A stretch of 12,352 bases of DNA, taken from IMG/VR virus record IMGVR_UViG_3300021279_000011; one strand, given 5' to 3'. The translations under genes were made by a program, and so were the position numbers. The notes below the pieces were generated by a model, which made no database searches, was not told where the DNA came from, and saw nothing but the letters and a program-made list of their open reading frames with translations. The DNA is from a virus (lineage: Duplodnaviria > Heunggongvirae > Uroviricota > Caudoviricetes). Positions 1 to 10,272 of the stretch are shown here, piece by piece (position 1 is the first letter of the stretch; every line of letters begins with the position of its first letter).

Positions 1-165
1 TCTGTGTGCTGTATCTTCTTTCGGGTGGGTACAGGGCAGTGCGCGATTGCTGGCGCAGGCAGATTGATAAAAGGGCCGCAGAGAAAATCAGCGCCAGTCA
101 GTCAGCCGGAAGCAAACCCGAAGAGCCCATTACTCCTTAACAACCCCTTTCAACGAGAAAACCCT

Positions 166-450
166 ATGTCAGAAGTAAAACCCCTGGTCACTGCTGATGC
201 AGTGAAAGACGCGCTGCGCTCAGAAGATGTGCGTGGAGCACTGAAACAGAAAGTCCGCCAGACATTTGAAGCGCAGATAGAAGCAGATGTGGATGCGATT
301 CTGGATACGATACTGGGAGAGCAGCCAGGCGAACAGCCAGAGCCGGAACCGCAACCGGAAGATATCACCTCAGAAAACGGCGATATTCAACCGGAATCAC
401 CGGTGGTTGATGCGACTGAAGCACAACCTGAACCGGGCACCATGCTGTAA
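166..450 (+). CDS. Hypothetical small acidic protein (94 aa) upstream of the lysis cassette
   Basis: ATG at 166 in the frame of track ORF 4..450, stop TAA 448-450. Weak SD-like GAG about 8 nt upstream. The C-terminus is Pro/Glu-rich low complexity (PEPEPQPE). The in-frame sequence upstream of 166 (CCIFFRVG...) does not look protein-like, so 166 is the preferred start. Family not recognised. Confidence 0.4.
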   Translation: MSEVKPLVTADAVKDALRSEDVRGALKQKVRQTFEAQIEADVDAILDTILGEQPGEQPEPEPQPEDITSENGDIQPESPVVDATEAQPEPGTML

Positions 451-461
451 GGGTGAGTCAG

Positions 462-491
462 GGCCATCAGTAAAGTACTGCTGGCCTTTTT
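462..491 (+). terminator. Rho-independent terminator-like hairpin (possible tR' analogue) just upstream of the holin
   Basis: GGCCATCAG (462-470), loop TAAAGTA, CTGCTGGCC (478-486) pairs 8 of 9 positions, followed by TTTTT (487-491). It lies between the stop at 450 and the holin start. Confidence 0.5.
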
Positions 492-525
492 CATGTTGTG
501 AGCTTCCGTGTGCGGGAGACGGGGT

Positions 526-741
526 ATGTACCAGATGGAAAAAATCACAACAGGTGTGTCATACACCACGTCAGCGGTGGGAACGGGCTACTGGTTCCTG
601 CAGTTGCTGGACAAAGTCTCCCCGTCTCAGTGGGCGGCAATAGGCGTGCTGGGGAGTCTGCTGTTTGGGCTGCTGACATATCTGACGAACCTGTATTTCA
701 AAATCAAAGAGGACCGGCGTAAGGCCGCCCGGGGAGAGTGA
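526..741 (+). CDS. S: Class II holin, phage 21 S21-type pinholin (71-aa and 68-aa forms from dual start)
   Basis: The translation [71 protein letters not shown] closely matches the S21/EssD-type pinholin as recalled (two TMDs, C-terminal [13 protein letters not shown]). In-frame ATGs at 526 and 535 reproduce the S21 71/68 dual-start spacing. GGGAG at 514-518 lies 7 nt before ATG 526. Stop TGA 739-741. Confidence 0.85.
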
Positions 742-744
742 ATA

Positions 745-1302
745 ATGAACCATGAAGAAATGAATCAGCGCTTCAGTCGCCTGGAAAATGAAATTGCTGA
801 ACTGAATAAAAAACTGTCGACGCTGATGCCTTCTGAAGATGAAAAAAAACGCCGCGATGAGCAGTTTGCTGCGTTTGACGATTATTGTCGGAAAGTGATG
901 AGCAGAAATCTCGCAGAGTGTTTCAGTATTCATAATGATAATTTCAGTGAGCTGGAATGGGAGTGTAACCGGCCATCCTTTGTTGTATCCGGTGATGGTG
1001 TGAAAATAACCATCTCAGAAAATGGGAAAGTAACACCTCCATCGCACCAGCACAGTGAGGAGCTCATTGAATTTGCCATTGATTACCTGAAGAACAATAA
1101 AAAACAGGGGCTGATGCAGCGCATTGGTCGTTGCATGGGGTATCTGCAGGTAGCCGCTGAGATTGAAGCGCTGGCCAGTGGTGCGGACAAGGATTCAGTT
1201 GTGCGGGAGGCACTTCTTCGTGATTTTGATCATCTGCCCTTTAAAAAAGTGCCGGCTTACTGGCTTCATCCCGGACTGACTTATCTGAAAGTGCGTATTT
1301 AG
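745..1302 (+). CDS. Hypothetical 185-aa protein inserted between holin and endolysin (accessory/moron candidate)
   Basis: ATG 745 follows the holin stop by 3 nt, with GGGAGAG 6-8 nt upstream; stop TAG 1300-1302. Predicted soluble, with an N-terminal coiled-coil-like segment (RLENEIAELNKKLSTL) and no TM segment. Hand count of the first 120 nt gives about 43% GC, against about 52% for the first 120 nt of the portal gene. Family not recognised. Confidence 0.6.
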   Translation: MNHEEMNQRFSRLENEIAELNKKLSTLMPSEDEKKRRDEQFAAFDDYCRKVMSRNLAECFSIHNDNFSELEWECNRPSFVVSGDGVKITISENGKVTPPSHQHSEELIEFAIDYLKNNKKQGLMQRIGRCMGYLQVAAEIEALASGADKDSVVREALLRDFDHLPFKKVPAYWLHPGLTYLKVRI

Positions 1303-1338
1303 TGGGACTGGGACAGCGGCTGAATATTTAATATATCC

Positions 1339-1872
1339 ATGAACACAAAAATCAAATACGGCCTGTCGGCTGCCGTTCTGGCGTTGATTGCCGCAGGGGC
1401 TTCTGCGCCTGAAATCCTCGACCAGTTTCTGGATGAAAAGGAAGGCAACCACACCACGGCATACCGTGATGGTGCGGGTATCTGGACCATCTGCCGAGGT
1501 GCCATCATGGTGGATGGTAAGCCTGTGATTCCTGGCATGAAGCTGTCGAAGGAAAAATGCGACCAGGTTAACGCCATTGAGCGTGATAAGGCGCTGGCAT
1601 GGGTGGAGAAAAACATCAAAGTGCCACTGACTGAACCCCAGAAAGCGGGTATTGCGTCATTCTGTCCTTACAACATTGGCCCCGGTAAGTGTTTCAGCTC
1701 AACGTTTTACCGGAAACTGAACGCCGGAGACCGTAAAGGCGCATGTGCTGAAATTCGTCGCTGGATATATGACGGTGGTCAGGACTGCCGTATTCGTTCA
1801 AACAACTGTTACGGTCAGGTATCCCGTCGTGACCAGGAGAGCGCGCTGGCGTGCTGGGAAATCGACAGATAA
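1339..1872 (+). CDS. R: SAR endolysin (phage 21 R21 / RrrD-RrrQ-type lysozyme, glycoside hydrolase family 24)
   Basis: The translation MNTKIKYGLSAAVLALIAAGASAPEILDQFLDEKEGNHTTAYRDGAGIWTICRG... has the N-terminal signal-anchor-release hydrophobic segment and the E-x8-D-x5-T catalytic arrangement of T4-lysozyme-like SAR endolysins. It is near-identical over most of its length to E. coli cryptic-prophage lysozymes as I recall them. Stop TAA 1870-1872. Confidence 0.9.
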   Translation: MNTKIKYGLSAAVLALIAAGASAPEILDQFLDEKEGNHTTAYRDGAGIWTICRGAIMVDGKPVIPGMKLSKEKCDQVNAIERDKALAWVEKNIKVPLTEPQKAGIASFCPYNIGPGKCFSSTFYRKLNAGDRKGACAEIRRWIYDGGQDCRIRSNNCYGQVSRRDQESALACWEIDR

Positions 1873-1981
1873 GCAGAATATTTTGCTGAAAAATGAGGTT
1901 TGCTCACATGGACGTATAACACGAAATCCTGCAAATTGGCAAAATGTAAGTGAATAAAGTCAAAACAGTTGTTTAACACTC

Positions 1982-2008
1982 AGGCACCGTAATGGTGCCT
2001 TTGTCATT
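1982..2008 (+). terminator. Hairpin with T-rich tail downstream of the endolysin (possible terminator)
   Basis: AGGCACC (1982-1988), loop GTAAT, GGTGCCT (1994-2000) is a perfect 7-bp stem, followed by TTGTCATTT. Confidence 0.35.
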
Positions 2009-2011
2009 TCT

Positions 2012-2033
2012 GCGCATCTCACGCGCATCTCAC
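2012..2033. repeat. Perfect tandem direct repeat, 2 x 11 bp (GCGCATCTCAC)
   Basis: GCGCATCTCAC at 2012-2022 is repeated exactly at 2023-2033, about 110 bp upstream of the ATG at 2143. Confidence 0.6.
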
Positions 2034-2142
2034 AACACAGAACCTTTCAGGATGACCCTTGAGGATACCGGTTTGGCTGTCGGTGCCTTTCTGTGGGCTG
2101 GATTCCTGTGAGACAAGGTTCATCACTAAAAGGAAATAACCG

Positions 2143-2712
2143 ATGAATATGATGACCGTGCCGTTTCACGGCAACTCTCTTTATGTAGTTAACCATAATG
2201 GCGAGCCATACGTTCCCATGAAACCTGTCGTTGCGGGGATGGGGCTGGCCTGGCAATCACAGTTGGCTAAGTTAAGACAGCGTTTTGCGTCAACTATAAC
2301 GGAAATCGTTATGGTTGCTGAGGATGGGAAACAACGCAATATGGTGTCCATGCCACTTCGAAAACTTGCCGGCTGGCTACAAACTATTAATCCCAACAAA
2401 GTAAAACCCGAAATCCGCGATAAGGTCATCCGGTATCAGGAAGAGTGCGACGATGTTCTTTACGAGTACTGGACGAAGGGTTTTGTCGTTAATCCCCGTA
2501 AAATGAGCGTGATGGAAGAACTCAACCAGGCTTGTGCTGACATGAAACGGGATAAAAACATTGCCAGTGTGTTTGCTACCGGGCTGAATGAGTGGAAACA
2601 GGTTAAAGCCGCGCATGTATCAAAAATCCGTACGCTGGTAAATGAAGCGAATATGCTGATTGATTTTGTCCTGGCTGATACAGGCAAAGGGAAAATAACA
2701 AAGGCGGATTGA
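2143..2712 (+). CDS. Antirepressor-like protein (P22-type antirepressor N-terminal-domain-like), 189 aa
   Basis: The N-terminus MNMMTVPFHGNSLYVVNHNGEPYVPMKPVVAGMGLAWQSQLAKL resembles the N-terminal domain of P22-type antirepressor proteins, by recollection only. AAGGA lies about 9 nt upstream of ATG 2143. Stop TGA 2710-2712. Confidence 0.65.
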   Translation: MNMMTVPFHGNSLYVVNHNGEPYVPMKPVVAGMGLAWQSQLAKLRQRFASTITEIVMVAEDGKQRNMVSMPLRKLAGWLQTINPNKVKPEIRDKVIRYQEECDDVLYEYWTKGFVVNPRKMSVMEELNQACADMKRDKNIASVFATGLNEWKQVKAAHVSKIRTLVNEANMLIDFVLADTGKGKITKAD

Positions 2713-2858
2713 TGGGGTGGCTAATGATATCAGATAAACTCATAACGCTGGTGAAGAGCCTCTGTGTACTTGTCGGCATTTCATTTTCACTAATGCTGGT
2801 TGCTCTTTTTCTTTCCATGGCCTGGATGGCGTTGACTTCGGCAGGGCTGGTGGGGTGA
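2712..2858 (+). CDS. Small hydrophobic membrane protein (48 aa), translationally coupled, absent from the ORF track
   Basis: ATG 2712 overlaps the upstream stop (TGATG), with a second in-frame ATG at 2724. The translation MGWLMISDKLITLVKSLCVLVGISFSLMLVALFLSMAWMALTSAGLVG is almost entirely hydrophobic (one or two TM helices). Stop TGA 2856-2858 overlaps the Rz GTG start at 2855 (GTGA). Confidence 0.4.
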   Translation: MGWLMISDKLITLVKSLCVLVGISFSLMLVALFLSMAWMALTSAGLVG

Positions 2859-3328
2859 GCATAAACCGAATGCTTTCCGCGTTTACCGTTATTCTGCTGG
2901 TGGTCTGTGGTGCGCTTAGTCTGGGGCTGAATCATTACCGCGATAACGCCATAACCTACAAAGCGCAGCGCGATAAAAAAGTCAGTGAGCTGGAGCTGGC
3001 AAATGCAACCATTACTGATATGCAGCAGCGCCAGCGTGATGTTGCTGCACTTGATGCCAGATACTCGAGGGAATTAGCCGATGCGAGAGCTGAAAATGAA
3101 ACTCTGCGTGCTGATGTTGCCGCTGGTCGTAAGCGCCTGCGGATCAACGCCACCTGCCCCGGTACCGTGCGTGAAGCCACCGGCACCTCCGGCGTGGGCA
3201 ATGATGCCGCCGTCGAACTCTCTCCGGTTGCTGGACGAAACGTTCTCGGTATCAGAGACGGAATCATCAGCGACCAGGCAGCATTGAGAATGCTTCAGGA
3301 ATATATCCGCACTCAGTGTATTAACTAG
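2855..3328 (+). CDS. Rz: Rz i-spanin (inner-membrane spanin subunit)
   Basis: The translation ...LNHYRDNAITYKAQRDKKVSELELANATITDMQQRQRDVAALDARYSRELADARAENETLRADVAAGRKRL... closely matches lambda Rz as recalled (N-terminal TMD, coiled-coil periplasmic domain). Start is GTG 2855 or the in-frame ATG 2870. Stop TAG 3326-3328. Confidence 0.9.
   Translation: MSINRMLSAFTVILLVVCGALSLGLNHYRDNAITYKAQRDKKVSELELANATITDMQQRQRDVAALDARYSRELADARAENETLRADVAAGRKRLRINATCPGTVREATGTSGVGNDAAVELSPVAGRNVLGIRDGIISDQAALRMLQEYIRTQCIN
3081..3287 (+). CDS. Rz1: Rz1 o-spanin lipoprotein, embedded in the +1 frame of Rz
   Basis: MRELKMKLCVLMLPLVVSAC has the lipobox LVVSAC with Cys at residue 20, the same position as in lambda Rz1, followed by a proline-rich mature region (GSTPPAPVPCVKPPAPPAWAMMPP). 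Fully nested within Rz, as in lambda. Alternative start ATG 3096. Confidence 0.85.
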   Translation: MRELKMKLCVLMLPLVVSACGSTPPAPVPCVKPPAPPAWAMMPPSNSLRLLDETFSVSETESSATRQH

Positions 3329-3351
3329 TATTTTTGTTATTCGGAGAATGC

Positions 3352-3576
3352 ATGAAGAAATTACTGGTAACCGTAAAGCCTTTTCAGGGAACAATTCCGT
3401 TCCGTATTTTGCAGCGTGGTCGTGTTCTTGTTGAAGGTTCGTTCAGTGGTAAATGTACGCAATTACACTCCCGGACCTTTCAGGTGAATGCCACGAATGA
3501 AGAGCTAACCGTTGAGTGTACGATGAATGCCGCTAAATGCCGCATGGTATCTGCTGCATTACAGCCAGTGTGTTGA
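3352..3576 (+). CDS. Hypothetical 74-aa Cys-containing protein downstream of Rz
   Basis: ATG 3352 preceded by GGAGA (3343-3347). The translation is MKKLLVTVKPFQGTIPFRILQRGRVLVEGSFSGKCTQLHSRTFQVNATNEELTVECTMNAAKCRMVSAALQPVC. No signal peptide or lipobox, and not similar to lambda Bor. Coding status uncertain. Confidence 0.35.
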   Translation: MKKLLVTVKPFQGTIPFRILQRGRVLVEGSFSGKCTQLHSRTFQVNATNEELTVECTMNAAKCRMVSAALQPVC

Positions 3577-3778
3577 GCAAGCTTATTATCCATGCGCGGT
3601 ATCGTCGCCGTATTCCCGTATTAACAGAGACCGCAGCCCGACAGGGAGACTCCTCTGCGCGAGTGTGCGGGGATAATCAAAAACGATACACACCGGGGTT
3701 TACCGCGTTAACGGAGCGCGGCGTTGTCCCCTCATGGTCGCTGGTCCGGTGCGATGGTGGAAGAAACCGGACTACATT

Positions 3779-3803
3779 AAAAATGATAACCATTATCATT
3801 TTT
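3779..3803. repeat. Perfect 11-bp inverted repeat with 3-nt spacer (25-bp palindrome) upstream of the cosN-like motif
   Basis: AAAAATGATAA (3779-3789), CCA, TTATCATTTTT (3793-3803); the arms are exact reverse complements. A second inverted repeat, GTCCGGT (3744-3750) / ACCGGAC (3766-3772), lies just upstream. Confidence 0.6.
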
Positions 3804-3832
3804 GCGGGTCCTCCTGGTGGGGTGGGTCTGAA

Positions 3833-3851
3833 CACGGGGCGGGCGGCGCGG
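3833..3851. other. cosN-like cohesive-end motif (terminase cleavage region)
   Basis: ACGGGGCGGGCGGCGCGG resembles the lambda cos junction ACGGGGCGGCGACCT as recalled, at the lambda-equivalent position about 150 bp upstream of the small-terminase start and followed by an AT-rich cosB-like region (3900-3985). The exact nick positions cannot be read from sequence. Confidence 0.45.
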
Positions 3852-3995
3852 AAAAAGGCGCATTTTTTGATTTTTATGGCACCATCACCACCAGTGTAAG
3901 TTATTGATATATAGAAAAATAAAAATTTTTAGTGTCGAATTTGGTTGTTTTTTGTTCATCACTGGCGTGTATTTACATAATTTTCAGGGGGAGTT

Positions 3996-4472
3996 ATGGA
4001 TCGTGAATTAAAAAATCTGCATCTGAATATTTCCCAACTGGCCGCATTATCCGGTGCTCATCGACAGACTGTTGCGGCTCGGGTAAAAAACATAAGCCCA
4101 ACCGGTGGTCATGAGAGCAATCTCAAACTGTACCGACTGACAGATATCCTTGCCGAGCTGATGAAAGCTCCTCTGCCTGTAGATAACGAGGAAATGGATC
4201 CTCATGCGCGTAAAGCATGGTACCAGTCAGAACGTGACCGACTGAAATTTGAGCAGGAAACTGGTCAGCTTGTGCCAGTCAGTGATGTCAGGCGGTCCTT
4301 TTCTGTCGTGGTGAAAGCGATAGTTCAGGTACTGGAAACCTGGCCTGACCGGCTGGAGAGGGACAGGGGGTGGACCGCATCACAACTGAATGAAGTACAG
4401 ATTGTGGTTGATGAGATCCGCGACACACTGGAAAAGGCAGTCATTGACTGCTGTGATGAGGCCGATATGTGA
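3996..4472 (+). CDS. Nu1: Terminase small subunit (lambda Nu1-like)
   Basis: First gene after the cos-like region. N-terminal HTH-like segment (NISQLAALSGAHRQTVAARV) and overall Nu1-like organisation and size (158 aa). AGGGGGAG precedes ATG 3996. The stop overlaps the large-terminase start (ATGTGA). Confidence 0.8.
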   Translation: MDRELKNLHLNISQLAALSGAHRQTVAARVKNISPTGGHESNLKLYRLTDILAELMKAPLPVDNEEMDPHARKAWYQSERDRLKFEQETGQLVPVSDVRRSFSVVVKAIVQVLETWPDRLERDRGWTASQLNEVQIVVDEIRDTLEKAVIDCCDEADM

Positions 4473-6801: not shown

Positions 6802-8303
6802 TGGCAATTATTGATGATGTGATAGGCGTGTTTTCCCCCGGGTGGAAAGCAGCCAGACTGCGTTCAAGGGCGTTAATCATGGCCTATGAGGCGGTGAAAC
6901 CGACCCGGACACATAAAGCCCGGCGGGAAAATCGCTCTGCCGATCAGCTCAGTAAATACGGTGCGGTTTCCCTGCGGGAGCAGGCCCGTTTTCTGGATAT
7001 CAATCATGACCTGGTGATTGGTGTGTTTGACAAGCTGGAAGAGCGGGTGATTGGTGCCAGGGGAATTATTGTGGAGCCTCAGCCATTACGAAAAAACGGG
7101 GAAATGGCGGCTGAGCTGGCTGCGGATATCCGCCGGTTGTGGGCTGAATGGTCCGTGAGTCCGGATGTGACAGGGCAGTATACCCGTCCCGTGCTTGAAC
7201 GTTTACTGCTGCGGACCTGGCTGCGGGATGGTGAAGTGTTTGCGCAGATGGTCAGTGGTGCGGGAAACGGTCTGGAACGGACGGCGGGAGTGCCATTCTG
7301 GCTTGAGGCGATGGAGCCGGATTTTGTTCCCATGCGCACAGATGAATCCGCCGGACTGAATCAGGGGGTTTTTCTTGATGAGTGGGGAAGACCGAAAAAA
7401 TATCTGGTTTATAAAAATTATCCGGTCAGCGGCCGGCAGAGTGATACGAAAGAAATCGCTGCCGGAAAAATGATCCACCTGAAGTTCACTCGTCGTCTGC
7501 ACCAGACGCGAGGCTCATCCATGTTATCGGGGGTGCTGATGCGGATCAGTGCCCTTAAGGAGTATGAGGATGCGGAACTGACAGCGGCGCGTATTGCTGC
7601 GGCGCTGGGACTGTATATCCGTAAAGGTGACGGACAGGACTATGAAGATCCGGGGAGCAAAGAGACCGAGCGGGAAGTCCATATCACCCCGGGTATTATT
7701 TATGACGATTTGCGCAAGGGCGAGGATATCGGCATGGTCAAATCTGACCGTCCCAATCCCAACCTTGAAACTTTCCGCAACGGCCAGTTGCGTGCAGTGG
7801 CAGCAGGCAGTCGTCTGAGTTTTTCCAGTGCGGCGCGTAACTATAACGGCACCTACAGCGCCCAGCGGCAGGAGCTGGTCGAGTCCACGGATGGTTACCT
7901 GATCCTGCAGGACTGTTTTATTGGCGCGGTAACCCGCCCGGTGTACCGGACATGGCTGAATATGGTGGTTGCGGCAGGTCTGCTGAAAATTCCGGCGGAT
8001 GTGGAGATGAAAACGCTATATAACGCGACGTATTCCGGTCCGGTGATGCCGTGGATCGACCCGGTTAAGGAAGCTGAAGCCTGGAGAATTCAGATCCGGG
8101 GTGGTGCAGCGACAGAATCTGACTGGGTGCGTGCCGGTGGGCGCAATCCGGATGAGGTCAAACGTCGCCGCAAGGCTGAAATTGATGAAAACAGCAGACT
8201 GGGGCTGGTCTTTGATACTGACCCCGTCAACGACAAAGGAGGCAACAGTGCCGGAACTGAACGACAGTATCAGCGCGACACCGAAAGCCAGCATGAAGAA
8301 TAA
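6801..8303 (+). CDS. B: Portal protein (lambda gpB family)
   Basis: 500 aa at the gpB position directly after W. ATG 6801 overlaps the W stop (TAATG) and is preceded by GAGG. Size and position fit a lambda-family portal; no motif-level alignment was done. Confidence 0.8.
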   Translation: MAIIDDVIGVFSPGWKAARLRSRALIMAYEAVKPTRTHKARRENRSADQLSKYGAVSLREQARFLDINHDLVIGVFDKLEERVIGARGIIVEPQPLRKNGEMAAELAADIRRLWAEWSVSPDVTGQYTRPVLERLLLRTWLRDGEVFAQMVSGAGNGLERTAGVPFWLEAMEPDFVPMRTDESAGLNQGVFLDEWGRPKKYLVYKNYPVSGRQSDTKEIAAGKMIHLKFTRRLHQTRGSSMLSGVLMRISALKEYEDAELTAARIAAALGLYIRKGDGQDYEDPGSKETEREVHITPGIIYDDLRKGEDIGMVKSDRPNPNLETFRNGQLRAVAAGSRLSFSSAARNYNGTYSAQRQELVESTDGYLILQDCFIGAVTRPVYRTWLNMVVAAGLLKIPADVEMKTLYNATYSGPVMPWIDPVKEAEAWRIQIRGGAATESDWVRAGGRNPDEVKRRRKAEIDENSRLGLVFDTDPVNDKGGNSAGTERQYQRDTESQHEE

Positions 8304-10272
8304 ATCCTGGTTCAGGATGCAGGCTGGGGGGCCGGGTGACGCGGATATTTATATTTATGACGAGATTGGTTTCTGGGGAGTTACCGCGAAGCAGTTTGTC
8401 AGCGAACTGAATGCACTGGGTGATATCACCCACATTAATCTCCATATCAATTCACCGGGTGGCGATGTCTTTGAGGGCATCGCCATTTTTAATGCCCTGA
8501 AAAATCAGGGGGCGACCATTACCGTGTATGTGGATGGCGTTGCCGCCTCGATGGCATCTGTGATTGCGATGGCCGGTGATACGGTCATTATGCCGGAAAA
8601 TGCCTTCATGATGATCCATAAGCCATGGGGATTCAGTGGCGGGGATGCTGAGGATATGCGCAGTTATGCCGATTTGCTGGATAAAGTCGAATCGGTACTG
8701 TTGCCAGCCTATGCGCAGAAAACCGGAAAAACCACCGATGAAATTGCCGCCATGCTGGCGGATGAAACCTGGATGTCCGGTGCCGAATGTCTGGCACACG
8801 GATTTGCTGACCAGGTGACACCCGCTGTTGAGGCAATGGCATGTATTCAGTCAAAACGTACAGAGGAATTTAAAAAGATGCCGGAATCCATCCGAAACAT
8901 GATTACTCCGCCACGCAACAGTGCCCCGCGTGATACCACAGTGATAATCCCTGCACCGGCGGTAACAGAACCATCACCGGTACCGGCAGTGTCTGATGAG
9001 GCGACCATTCGCGCCCGCGTTATGGCAGAACAGAAAGCCCGCATGTCAGGCATTAACGATCTGTTTGCCATGTTCGGCGGTCGCTATCAGACGCTTCAGG
9101 CACAGTGCGTGGCTGATCCTGACTGTTCGCTGGAAATGGCCCGTGAACGTCTGCTGAATGAAATGGGCAAGGAGTCCTCGCCGACCAACAAAAACACACC
9201 GGCCCATATTTATGCCGGAAACGGCAATTTTGTGGGAGACGGGATCCGCCAGGCGATGCTGGCCCGTGCCGGATTTGAAAATGTCGAGAAGGATAACGCC
9301 TATAACGGGATGACCCTGCGTGAATGGGCTCGTATGTCACTGACGGAGCGCGGTATTGGGGTGGCCAGTTATAACCCCATGCAGATGGTCGGGCTGGCGC
9401 TTACGCACAGCACCTCTGATTTTGGCAATATCCTGCTGGATGTGTCGAACAAGGGGCTGATCCAGGGCTGGGAGGAATCAGAAGAAACCTTCCAGAAGTG
9501 GACCCGTAAGGGACGCCTGTCAGACTTCAAAACAGCGTATCGCGTGGGGATGGGCGGTTTTGGTTCTCTGCGCCAGGTTCGTGAGGGGGCGGAGTATAAA
9601 TACATCACCACCTCAGATCGCAAGGAGACCATTGCTCTGGCCACCTACGGGGAGATTTTCTCCATCACCCGCCAGGCCATTATCAATGATGATCTGAATA
9701 TGCTGGTGGACGTGCCGATGAAGATGGGGCGTGCGGCGAAGGCAACGATTGGTGACCTGGTTTACAAGGTGCTGACGGATAACCCGAAACTGTCCGACGG
9801 TAAGGCGCTGTTCCATGCCGATCACAAAAATATTGCCACCGGGGGGATCTCCGTTTCCGGACTGGATGCGGCCCGTCAGATGATGCGCCTGCAGAAAGAA
9901 GGCGATCGCGCCCTGAATATCCGTCCGGCCTTTATGCTGGTACCGGTGGCACTGGAGACGGTGGCGAACCAGACCATCAAATCGGCCAGTGTGAAAGGGG
10001 CGGATGCAAACGCCGGTGTCATTAACCCTATCCAGAACTTTGCTGAGGTGATTGCGGAAGCGCGTCTTGATGCGGCAGATCCGAAAACCTGGTATCTGGC
10101 GGCGGCACAGGGCACTGACACCATTGAAGTGGCCTGGCTGGATGGTGTGGACACGCCATACATTGATCAGCAGGAAGGTTTCACCACTGACGGCATTGCC
10201 ACAAAAATTCGTATTGATGCCGGTGTGGCACCACTTGACTGGCGCGGTCTGGTGCGTTCGTCGGTGGCCTGA
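8248..10272 (+). CDS. Fused prohead protease (ClpP/S14-like) - linker/scaffold - major capsid protein
   Basis: The N-terminal part has ClpP-type protease motifs (INSPGGDVFEGIAIFNAL, active-site-like GVAASMASVIAMAGD, MIHKPWGFSGG). The middle is a Pro-rich linker. The C-terminal roughly 300 aa look like an HK97-fold major capsid protein. AAGGAGG (8236-8242) precedes GTG 8248; alternative start ATG 8293. Overlaps the portal 3' end. Confidence 0.85.
   Translation: MPELNDSISATPKASMKNKSWFRMQAGGPGDADIYIYDEIGFWGVTAKQFVSELNALGDITHINLHINSPGGDVFEGIAIFNALKNQGATITVYVDGVAASMASVIAMAGDTVIMPENAFMMIHKPWGFSGGDAEDMRSYADLLDKVESVLLPAYAQKTGKTTDEIAAMLADETWMSGAECLAHGFADQVTPAVEAMACIQSKRTEEFKKMPESIRNMITPPRNSAPRDTTVIIPAPAVTEPSPVPAVSDEATIRARVMAEQKARMSGINDLFAMFGGRYQTLQAQCVADPDCSLEMARERLLNEMGKESSPTNKNTPAHIYAGNGNFVGDGIRQAMLARAGFENVEKDNAYNGMTLREWARMSLTERGIGVASYNPMQMVGLALTHSTSDFGNILLDVSNKGLIQGWEESEETFQKWTRKGRLSDFKTAYRVGMGGFGSLRQVREGAEYKYITTSDRKETIALATYGEIFSITRQAIINDDLNMLVDVPMKMGRAAKATIGDLVYKVLTDNPKLSDGKALFHADHKNIATGGISVSGLDAARQMMRLQKEGDRALNIRPAFMLVPVALETVANQTIKSASVKGADANAGVINPIQNFAEVIAEARLDAADPKTWYLAAAQGTDTIEVAWLDGVDTPYIDQQEGFTTDGIATKIRIDAGVAPLDWRGLVRSSVA

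Follow-up and report, generated by a model that had tools for sequence, protein, structure and literature searches.

Why would a prophage carry a further gene between its holin and its endolysin, and what does such a gene encode? The question is raised by a 12,352-nucleotide (nt) stretch of Caudoviricetes DNA (IMG/VR record IMGVR_UViG_3300021279_000011), referred to here as the window, which as a whole is the late operon of a lambdoid prophage. In its lysis cassette a gene of 185 amino acids (aa) with an ATG start, located at 745..1302 on the + strand, lies between the gene of an S21-type class II (pin)holin (S) and that of an endolysin (R) of the signal-anchor-release (SAR) type. An earlier inspection of the letters alone, the sequence-only reading, had called this slot gene unrecognised. 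However, it is already present in RefSeq as a 'hypothetical protein' and corresponds to the B+D portion of 'YdfR family' proteins (modules defined below); it is a catalogued hypothetical protein at a known variable slot, not a new system. Its identity and architecture, as judged from the open reading frame (ORF), the PHROG profile, alignments and substitution rates, are nearly certainly those of a B+D form of the mosaic long-YdfR family (PHROG 1085) without the DUF1327 domain. The analysis adds to this a map of modules A, B and D, and a confident model of a domain that has neither a Pfam family nor a structural neighbour. It also suggests that the insert takes over a ribosome-binding site (RBS) embedded in the holin gene, leaving the endolysin on a leader without a Shine-Dalgarno (SD) sequence.

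Family membership and module architecture

The slot protein matches PHROG 1085 with an E value of 1.2e-109 (367 bits), its residues 1-185 corresponding to profile positions 117-296 of 296. The first 116 positions of the profile, the DUF1327 part, remain uncovered. No significant match was obtained in Pfam, NCBIfam or PADLOC, and PF07041 (DUF1327; gathering score 25 bits) did not match the slot protein even at E <= 1; control proteins from the holin-endolysin slot scored 118-152 bits. The earlier statement that the product belongs to no nameable family thus holds for Pfam, NCBIfam and PADLOC but not for PHROG. None of PF04971, PF00959, PF03245 and the PHROG lysis families matched the slot protein, and no family of the PADLOC-DB defence models did so at E <= 1, which leaves a defence role unsupported. 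The slot protein is not a holin, endolysin, spanin or known defence protein. A Pfam scan of 30 diverse family members returned DUF1327 in the long forms and otherwise sub-threshold coiled-coil noise (Relaxase_C, ABC_tran_CTD).

A search of 5.8 billion proteins, in which all names returned were from E. coli, yielded 185-aa 'hypothetical proteins' that are 90-98% identical to the slot protein, as well as 287-296-aa proteins named 'YdfR family' or 'DUF1327 domain-containing' that cover 98% of it at 82-90% identity. A RefSeq 'hypothetical protein' already matches the slot gene with 98% protein and 99.8% DNA identity; it bears this label and not that of the YdfR family because DUF1327 is missing.

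Four pieces were resolved by alignment and Pfam. Module A is DUF1327, the YdfR domain (~80-100 aa), and is absent from the slot protein. Module B (745..936, + strand, aa 1-64) is an antiparallel helical hairpin or coiled coil according to the alignments and the AlphaFold2 model, module C is an optional insert of ~30-40 aa, and module D (955..1299, + strand, aa 71-185) is an α/β domain of ~115 aa without a Pfam family. The 185-aa product of the window is B+D. The common long form of 287-296 aa (e.g. P0034, P0008) is A+B+D, gp05 of Stx2 phage 86 (YP_794052.1, 268 aa) is A+C+D, the 213-aa protein of Stx2_12E129 is B+C+D, the 169-aa protein of PhiR12_2 is A+B and the 103-aa YdfR of E. coli K-12 is A plus part of C. 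Module B is promiscuous, being fused behind DUF1327 as well as behind other N-terminal domains (the A+B protein of PhiR12_2 and P0134, respectively). The first ~30 residues of B in the window are unlike the internal B of the long forms. This rules out a simple N-terminal deletion of the long form and suggests that the window form is a separate recombinant with its own start.

The long YdfR-family proteins share with the slot protein the position between S and R, the modules B and D and membership of PHROG 1085. Unlike the slot protein, which starts directly with a variant B, they carry an N-terminal DUF1327 of ~100 aa and a linker. Stx2 phage 86 gp05 has only module D in common with the slot protein, at 83.5% identity. 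K-12 YdfR, encoded by the Qin prophage (b1555, DUF1327), occupies the same position, starts a few nt past the holin stop and uses the same embedded RBS, but has no sequence in common with the slot protein. The slot gene also shares the location of YdfR family genes in lambdoid prophages, with an S21-type holin directly in front of it and the endolysin behind.

When 1.84 billion representative proteins were searched exhaustively with a profile, only 43 proteins were found, the distant ones being Salmonella enterica hypothetical proteins and proteins from Logan contigs. Invariant in their D modules are L115, G128, R129, L134, Q135, A137, P165, K167, W173 and P176, and the common motifs are GR(C)MGxLQxAAEIE and DxxPPFKxxPxxWxxPGxxYLK. 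Most distant homologues consist of a DUF1327-like N-terminal domain (hhalign probability 92%, E 5.6e-7), a short coiled coil and then D; D-only and coiled-coil+D proteins (P0143, P0155, P0135) were also found. The Salmonella and Logan homologues P0167, P0171, P0133 and P0145 (254-314 aa), with the DUF1327-like domain and 26-40% identity, share D with its invariant motifs and are always located beside an S21-type holin-lysozyme-Rz cassette within the late operon. Their genes lie in the Q-to-S interval, often followed by an antisense gene of PHROG 1853. Indeed, genes of the Salmonella type are located upstream of the holin-lysozyme-Rz cassette and, where the contig extends far enough, downstream of the Q antiterminator. 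This position indicates that what is conserved is the link to the start of the late/lysis transcript rather than a location at the S-R junction. The combination of A, coiled coil and D looks like the older architecture.

The antisense gene (~104 aa, PHROG 1853) is convergent and just downstream of D-module genes in some loci, namely, on the - strand, L001 (2858-3172), L003 (3154-3468), L138 (4785-5102) and L139 (2673-2990). Its E. coli and Salmonella copies share 41% identity, and the window does not have it. Such a gene may function as a partner, or it may be an independent moron.

A first AlphaFold2 run, based on a shallow alignment of E. coli sequences only, gave a predicted local distance difference test (pLDDT) score of 51, with confidence for the hairpin alone. 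This first model was not used for fold searches, its C-terminal domain being unusable at that score. A second run with 30 diverse sequences, including the Salmonella and Logan homologues, reached a pLDDT of 82.4 and a predicted template modelling score (pTM) of 0.59. In this model helices 3-27 and 31-64 form a hairpin with a pLDDT of about 80-94, in line with the N-terminal coiled-coil-like stretch noticed earlier, and residues 58-68 are a disordered linker. Domain D is predicted to start with a three-stranded meander (79-83, 88-92, 95-97), followed by helices 101-117, 123-144, 151-160 and 178-184, the pLDDT being 83-96 over residues 71-160 and dropping to 74-78 in the final 25 residues. Between the last two helices of D, an irregular segment holds the invariant proline-rich motif. 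Foldseek searches of PDB and BFVD with the whole protein, in which the hairpin may mask weak matches to D, returned nothing at E <= 1e-3. Profile searches of PDB sequences with two alignments gave coiled-coil noise only (best E 0.006, a COP9 subunit). The predicted domain D has no recognisable relative in the fold and sequence libraries searched, and the impression that the protein resembles nothing familiar was borne out in as far as neither a Pfam family nor a structural neighbour in PDB or BFVD emerged.

Selection, expression context and occupancy of the junction

That the slot gene is a real gene rather than a chance ORF follows from the purifying selection on its homologous copies. Ratios of nonsynonymous to synonymous substitution rates (dN/dS) were calculated for the C-terminal 115 codons (module D) of 25 loci with 13 distinct sequences, giving 74 informative pairs. 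The median pairwise dN/dS was 0.25 and all 74 pairs remained below 1; comparison of the window copy with individual copies gave values of 0.22-0.38. Intact copies of 185-186 aa are present at several independent loci. These substitution patterns indicate that the slot ORF is a real gene under purifying selection. Its sequence contains homopolymer tracts, A6 at 808-813 and A8 at 842-849. In three B+D copies from IMG/VR (L025, L044, L059) the reading frame shifts where the A6 tract lies, which truncates the product at codon 27; these could be pseudogene alleles or homopolymer sequencing errors. At another locus (L140, E. coli FDAARGOS_1279, 2053-2943) the annotation gives a long YdfR-family gene as a pseudogene that lacks its C-terminus, and downstream of it D-module DNA is still recognisable but unannotated. 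Many other genomes resemble this locus in having a match of ~95% to query positions 116-558 where no feature is listed.

The sequence-only reading had described a complete ORF with a strong RBS 3 nt past the holin stop, of low GC content and with a soluble product, and all of this was confirmed. The gap between the holin stop and ATG 745 is exactly 3 nt (ATA). The RBS, GGGGAGAG (731-738, + strand), lies within the last codons of the holin, its GGAG core 8 nt upstream of the slot-gene ATG. The GC content is 42.5% in the first 120 nt, estimated earlier by hand at about 43%, and 45.5% over the whole ORF (GC at third codon positions, GC3, 45.0% and 45.7%, respectively), compared to 55.1% for the holin (GC3 68%), 52.8% for the endolysin (GC3 57.3%) and 53.6% for the whole window. 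No transmembrane segment was found in the slot protein, the maximal Kyte-Doolittle mean over 19 residues being 0.76, and its isoelectric point (pI) is 5.9. No Rfam family was found on the window, so that an explanation as an RNA element is unsupported.

Crude consensus scans revealed no sigma-70-like promoter in positions 1-4000 and no terminator flanking the slot ORF; the only good terminator-like hairpin is that at 1982-2000. With respect to the criteria for a moron, the atypically low GC is present, an own promoter and terminator were not found in these scans, and the start is coupled to the holin. The slot gene would be made together with the holin late in infection. The late expression proposed earlier from its position agrees with a lysis-operon gene for which these scans found no promoter of its own and which starts on the holin-embedded RBS. 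In all cassettes compared, the gene following the holin starts 3-5 nt past the holin stop, using the embedded GGAG, which depending on the cassette serves an A-type slot gene, a B-type slot gene or R itself. In empty cassettes R starts 4-5 nt after the holin stop on this GGAG, whereas in occupied cassettes such as that of the window it is found on an AT-rich leader without an obvious SD, here the 36-nt spacer 1303..1338 (+ strand). K-12 Qin differs in that ydfR stop and R start overlap (ATGA). The junction comparison indicates that the insert has displaced R from the holin-embedded RBS, and it may alter endolysin translation.

How common is an occupied junction? The order in K-12 Qin is essQ-ydfR-rrrQ. 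In at least 734 of the 5426 complete E. coli genomes, the holin-ORF-lysozyme stretch of this cassette is matched over 80% or more of its length. The slot ORF alone has matches in 885 of these genomes (16%), with at least 80% coverage in 249, and its best genome match (99.8%) is in the Shiga toxin-producing E. coli (STEC) strain 2012EL-2448. In a junction survey 129 loci were fetched with the holin as query and the content between holin stop and endolysin start was classified for the 70 closest IMG/VR loci and the 47 GTDB species representatives that include R. The slot was occupied in 54 of the 70 IMG/VR cassettes, by A only in 32, B+D in 10, A+B+D in seven, A+D in three, A+B in one and B only in one, and was empty in 16. 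Among the GTDB loci it was empty in 38 and held A only in five, B+D in three and A+B in one, with A+B+D, A+D and B only not encountered. All nine occupied GTDB loci are from Escherichia, Shigella, or E. coli-like contigs binned into unrelated metagenome-assembled genomes (MAGs). Four E. coli-like lysis cassettes (L089, L093, L098, L105) occur in MAGs labelled Nanosynbacter, Bacillota, Veillonella parvula and Segatella copri and are almost certainly mis-binned enterobacterial prophage DNA. The insert is absent from all surveyed cassettes outside Escherichia/Shigella. The holin abuts or overlaps the endolysin in Enterobacter, Kluyvera, Klebsiella, Raoultella, Buttiauxella, Phytobacter, Kosakonia, Scandinavium, Pseudocitrobacter and Providencia, and in Pectobacterium the two are separated by only about 105 nt. 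The expectation that an S21-type holin is followed directly by the endolysin is therefore correct outside Escherichia but not within it, as the 54 occupied cassettes and K-12 Qin show, and an occupied slot is usual in Escherichia rather than an oddity of this cassette.

The holin is carried by 427 of 50,697 phage records, among which DUF1327 occurs in about 100 and any B or D sequence in only 20; about three quarters of the sequenced phages with this holin have no such gene. VT2-Sakai carries this holin too, and its annotated lysis cassette is not known to contain a slot gene. The gene can be regarded as dispensable for lysis because most phages with this holin lack it, and the pseudogenisation of the long form in some genomes was counted in the same direction. 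The slot gene is very probably lineage-restricted, dispensable cargo and not a core lysis gene, and the earlier view of it as accessory cargo is supported by this pattern of presence and absence.

Possible functions of the slot protein

The best explanation overall, to which we would give an about even chance, is that the slot protein is a cytoplasmic late accessory factor of an Escherichia lambdoid prophage. Its gene would be transcribed on the Q-antiterminated late transcript and translated from the strong holin-embedded RBS alongside the holin, giving a cytoplasmic product. In the predicted structure hairpin B would probably provide oligomerisation or partner binding and domain D the effector part, an assignment of low confidence. 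It can be suggested only tentatively that D acts in the context of RNase E and RNA turnover. D would then work, again with low confidence, in the DUF1327 pathway, on host RNA turnover or the degradosome late in infection and not on the envelope. D is placed in the RNase E pathway because most lineages, even those that diverge most, have it joined to a DUF1327-type domain. In two-hybrid and pull-down experiments residues 1-72 of K-12 YdfR (DUF1327) interacted with the catalytic N-terminal half of RNase E, and RNA co-purifies with YdfR (PMC13232886). This 2026 paper was the sole informative one found in the literature on ydfR/DUF1327 and lambdoid holin-adjacent genes, which held nothing on the slot gene and otherwise one passing mention of DUF1327.

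Several observations weigh against an RNase E context. The slot protein lacks DUF1327, the only module with experimental data, so that the link to RNase E is one of guilt by fusion; the RNase E-binding residues 1-72 of YdfR have no counterpart in it, and overproduction of YdfR changes few transcripts (PMC13232886). The searches found no homologue of known function for domain D and nothing that ties D directly to RNA or RNase E. The pI of D is neutral (7.2), and the existence of D-only and coiled-coil+D proteins suggests that D can act without A. Finally, a role in lysis timing would fit the tight coupling to the holin seen in Escherichia just as well.

Such a role would make the slot protein a cytoplasmic regulator, produced stoichiometrically with the pinholin, that binds the charged, cytoplasmic C-terminal tail of the pinholin or the unreleased SAR endolysin and advances or delays triggering. 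The start 3 nt past the holin stop on the holin-embedded RBS fits this well, as does the finding of every family member in or next to an S21-type lysis cassette, in Escherichia, Salmonella and other contigs. The shift of R to a leader without SD could moreover change the holin:endolysin ratio. T4 RIII is a small soluble cytoplasmic antiholin cofactor, encoded by a gene (rIII) that is not known to lie in a lysis cassette. It offers a functional analogy only, as a small soluble phage protein that could act on the cytoplasmic part of a holin; no similarity of the slot protein in sequence or fold was found to anything in PDB or BFVD. Nor was any similarity to a known antiholin or lysis regulator found. 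The tight coupling is not conserved either, the Salmonella-type homologue lying upstream of the holin with an antisense gene between them, and most inducible Stx phages whose holin is near-identical do not carry the slot gene. Moreover, the slot mostly holds DUF1327-only proteins (32 of the 70 IMG/VR loci), of which the single tested member binds RNase E (PMC13232886). A lysis-timing role is considered unlikely.

It is somewhat easier, though still doubtful, to see the slot gene as host-takeover, anti-defence or superinfection-exclusion cargo unrelated to RNase E, consisting of low-GC DNA in a recombination-permissive slot, with D directed at another factor of the host or of a competitor phage. 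GC and GC3 values below those of the neighbours, extreme mosaicism and presence/absence polymorphism are in agreement with this, as are the narrow host range (43 of 1.84 billion representatives, from Escherichia, Salmonella and a few contigs), the second cargo gene (Ant-like) in the same cassette and the antisense PHROG 1853 gene accompanying the family at some loci. However, there is no PADLOC match and no positive evidence for any target, expression at the end of the lytic cycle suits exclusion or early anti-defence poorly, and, as the crude scans found neither an own promoter nor a terminator, the gene is probably not expressed as an autonomous moron from a repressed prophage. The slot ORF could also be a non-functional remnant, a deletion derivative of a long A+B+D gene in a decaying prophage, since some genomes contain long forms that have become pseudogenes, three B+D copies break off at codon 27, where the A6 tract lies, and the window form spans positions 117-296 of PHROG 1085 only. 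This is very improbable in view of the dN/dS of about 0.25, the recurrence of B+D in divergent alleles (185, 209, 213 and 217 aa; 45-98% identity) with their own start just after the holin, the first ~30 residues that differ from the internal B of long forms, and the presence of at least 80% of the slot ORF DNA in 249 complete genomes.

The cytoplasmic late accessory factor thus remains the preferred explanation. A more far-reaching version of it, which we consider improbable, is a two-part prophage system in which DUF1327 targets RNase E and D, an undescribed fold, carries an activity, together reprogramming host RNA decay at lysis, while hairpin B would allow B+D proteins to pair in trans with A+B proteins of co-resident prophages. 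If this were true, the lysis cassettes of Shiga-toxin-type prophages would encode phage degradosome modulators of a new class. A function, once found, would explain a family of which at least parts of the ORF occur in 16% of complete E. coli genomes, with DUF1327-type relatives in many more. STEC prophages are among these, and late transcription, RNA stability and lysis timing also affect Shiga-toxin release.

Neighbouring genes in the window

The S21-type (pin)holin gene (526..741, + strand) was identified by PF04971 (E 2.5e-33), PHROG holin families and its sequence. It has a dual-start motif MYQM with Met codons at 526 and 535 and a TGA stop at 739-741, and RefSeq annotates 216-nt holins at the corresponding place. 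The dual start resembles the 71/68 antiholin/holin pair of S21. GTG 508, the holin start given by the ORF lister, is probably not used. The endolysin gene (1339..1872, + strand) encodes a member of the T4-lysozyme family (PF00959, E 3.5e-26; PHROG 7, endolysin). Its N-terminus has a G/A-rich hydrophobic stretch and, read from the sequence, an E-8-D-5-T motif, features that fit the SAR type.

The terminator-like hairpin at 1982-2000 (AGGCACCGTAATGGTGCCT followed by a T-run) lies after the endolysin gene and before an Ant-like gene at 2143-2712 (P22_AR_N, E 1e-45, and ORF11CD3; PHROG 524, 'anti-repressor Ant'). This gene, with a GC content of 46%, is a second cargo gene in the lysis cassette, located between endolysin and Rz; the order R-ant-Rz is likewise annotated in Stx2 phage 86. 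The spanin genes Rz/Rz1 (2855-3328) are located downstream of the Ant-like gene and are followed by a small ORF of 74 aa (3352-3576; PHROG 2571, no Pfam), the product of which shares 48% identity with the first 61 residues of P0134. The C-terminus of P0134 (181 aa) is module B, so that the hairpin is joined to several unrelated N-terminal domains.

After Rz/Rz1 a DUF1441 protein is encoded at the place expected for the small terminase subunit, followed by the large terminase, a lambda-type portal, a ClpP-protease/capsid fusion, a cement protein and tail proteins Z and U. The fusion is a 723-aa ORF (8101-10272) with a ClpP-type protease at residues 95-240 and Phage_capsid_4 at residues 429-720. 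About 200 nt of this ORF overlap with the end of the portal gene, so that its true start probably lies downstream of the GTG chosen by the ORF lister.

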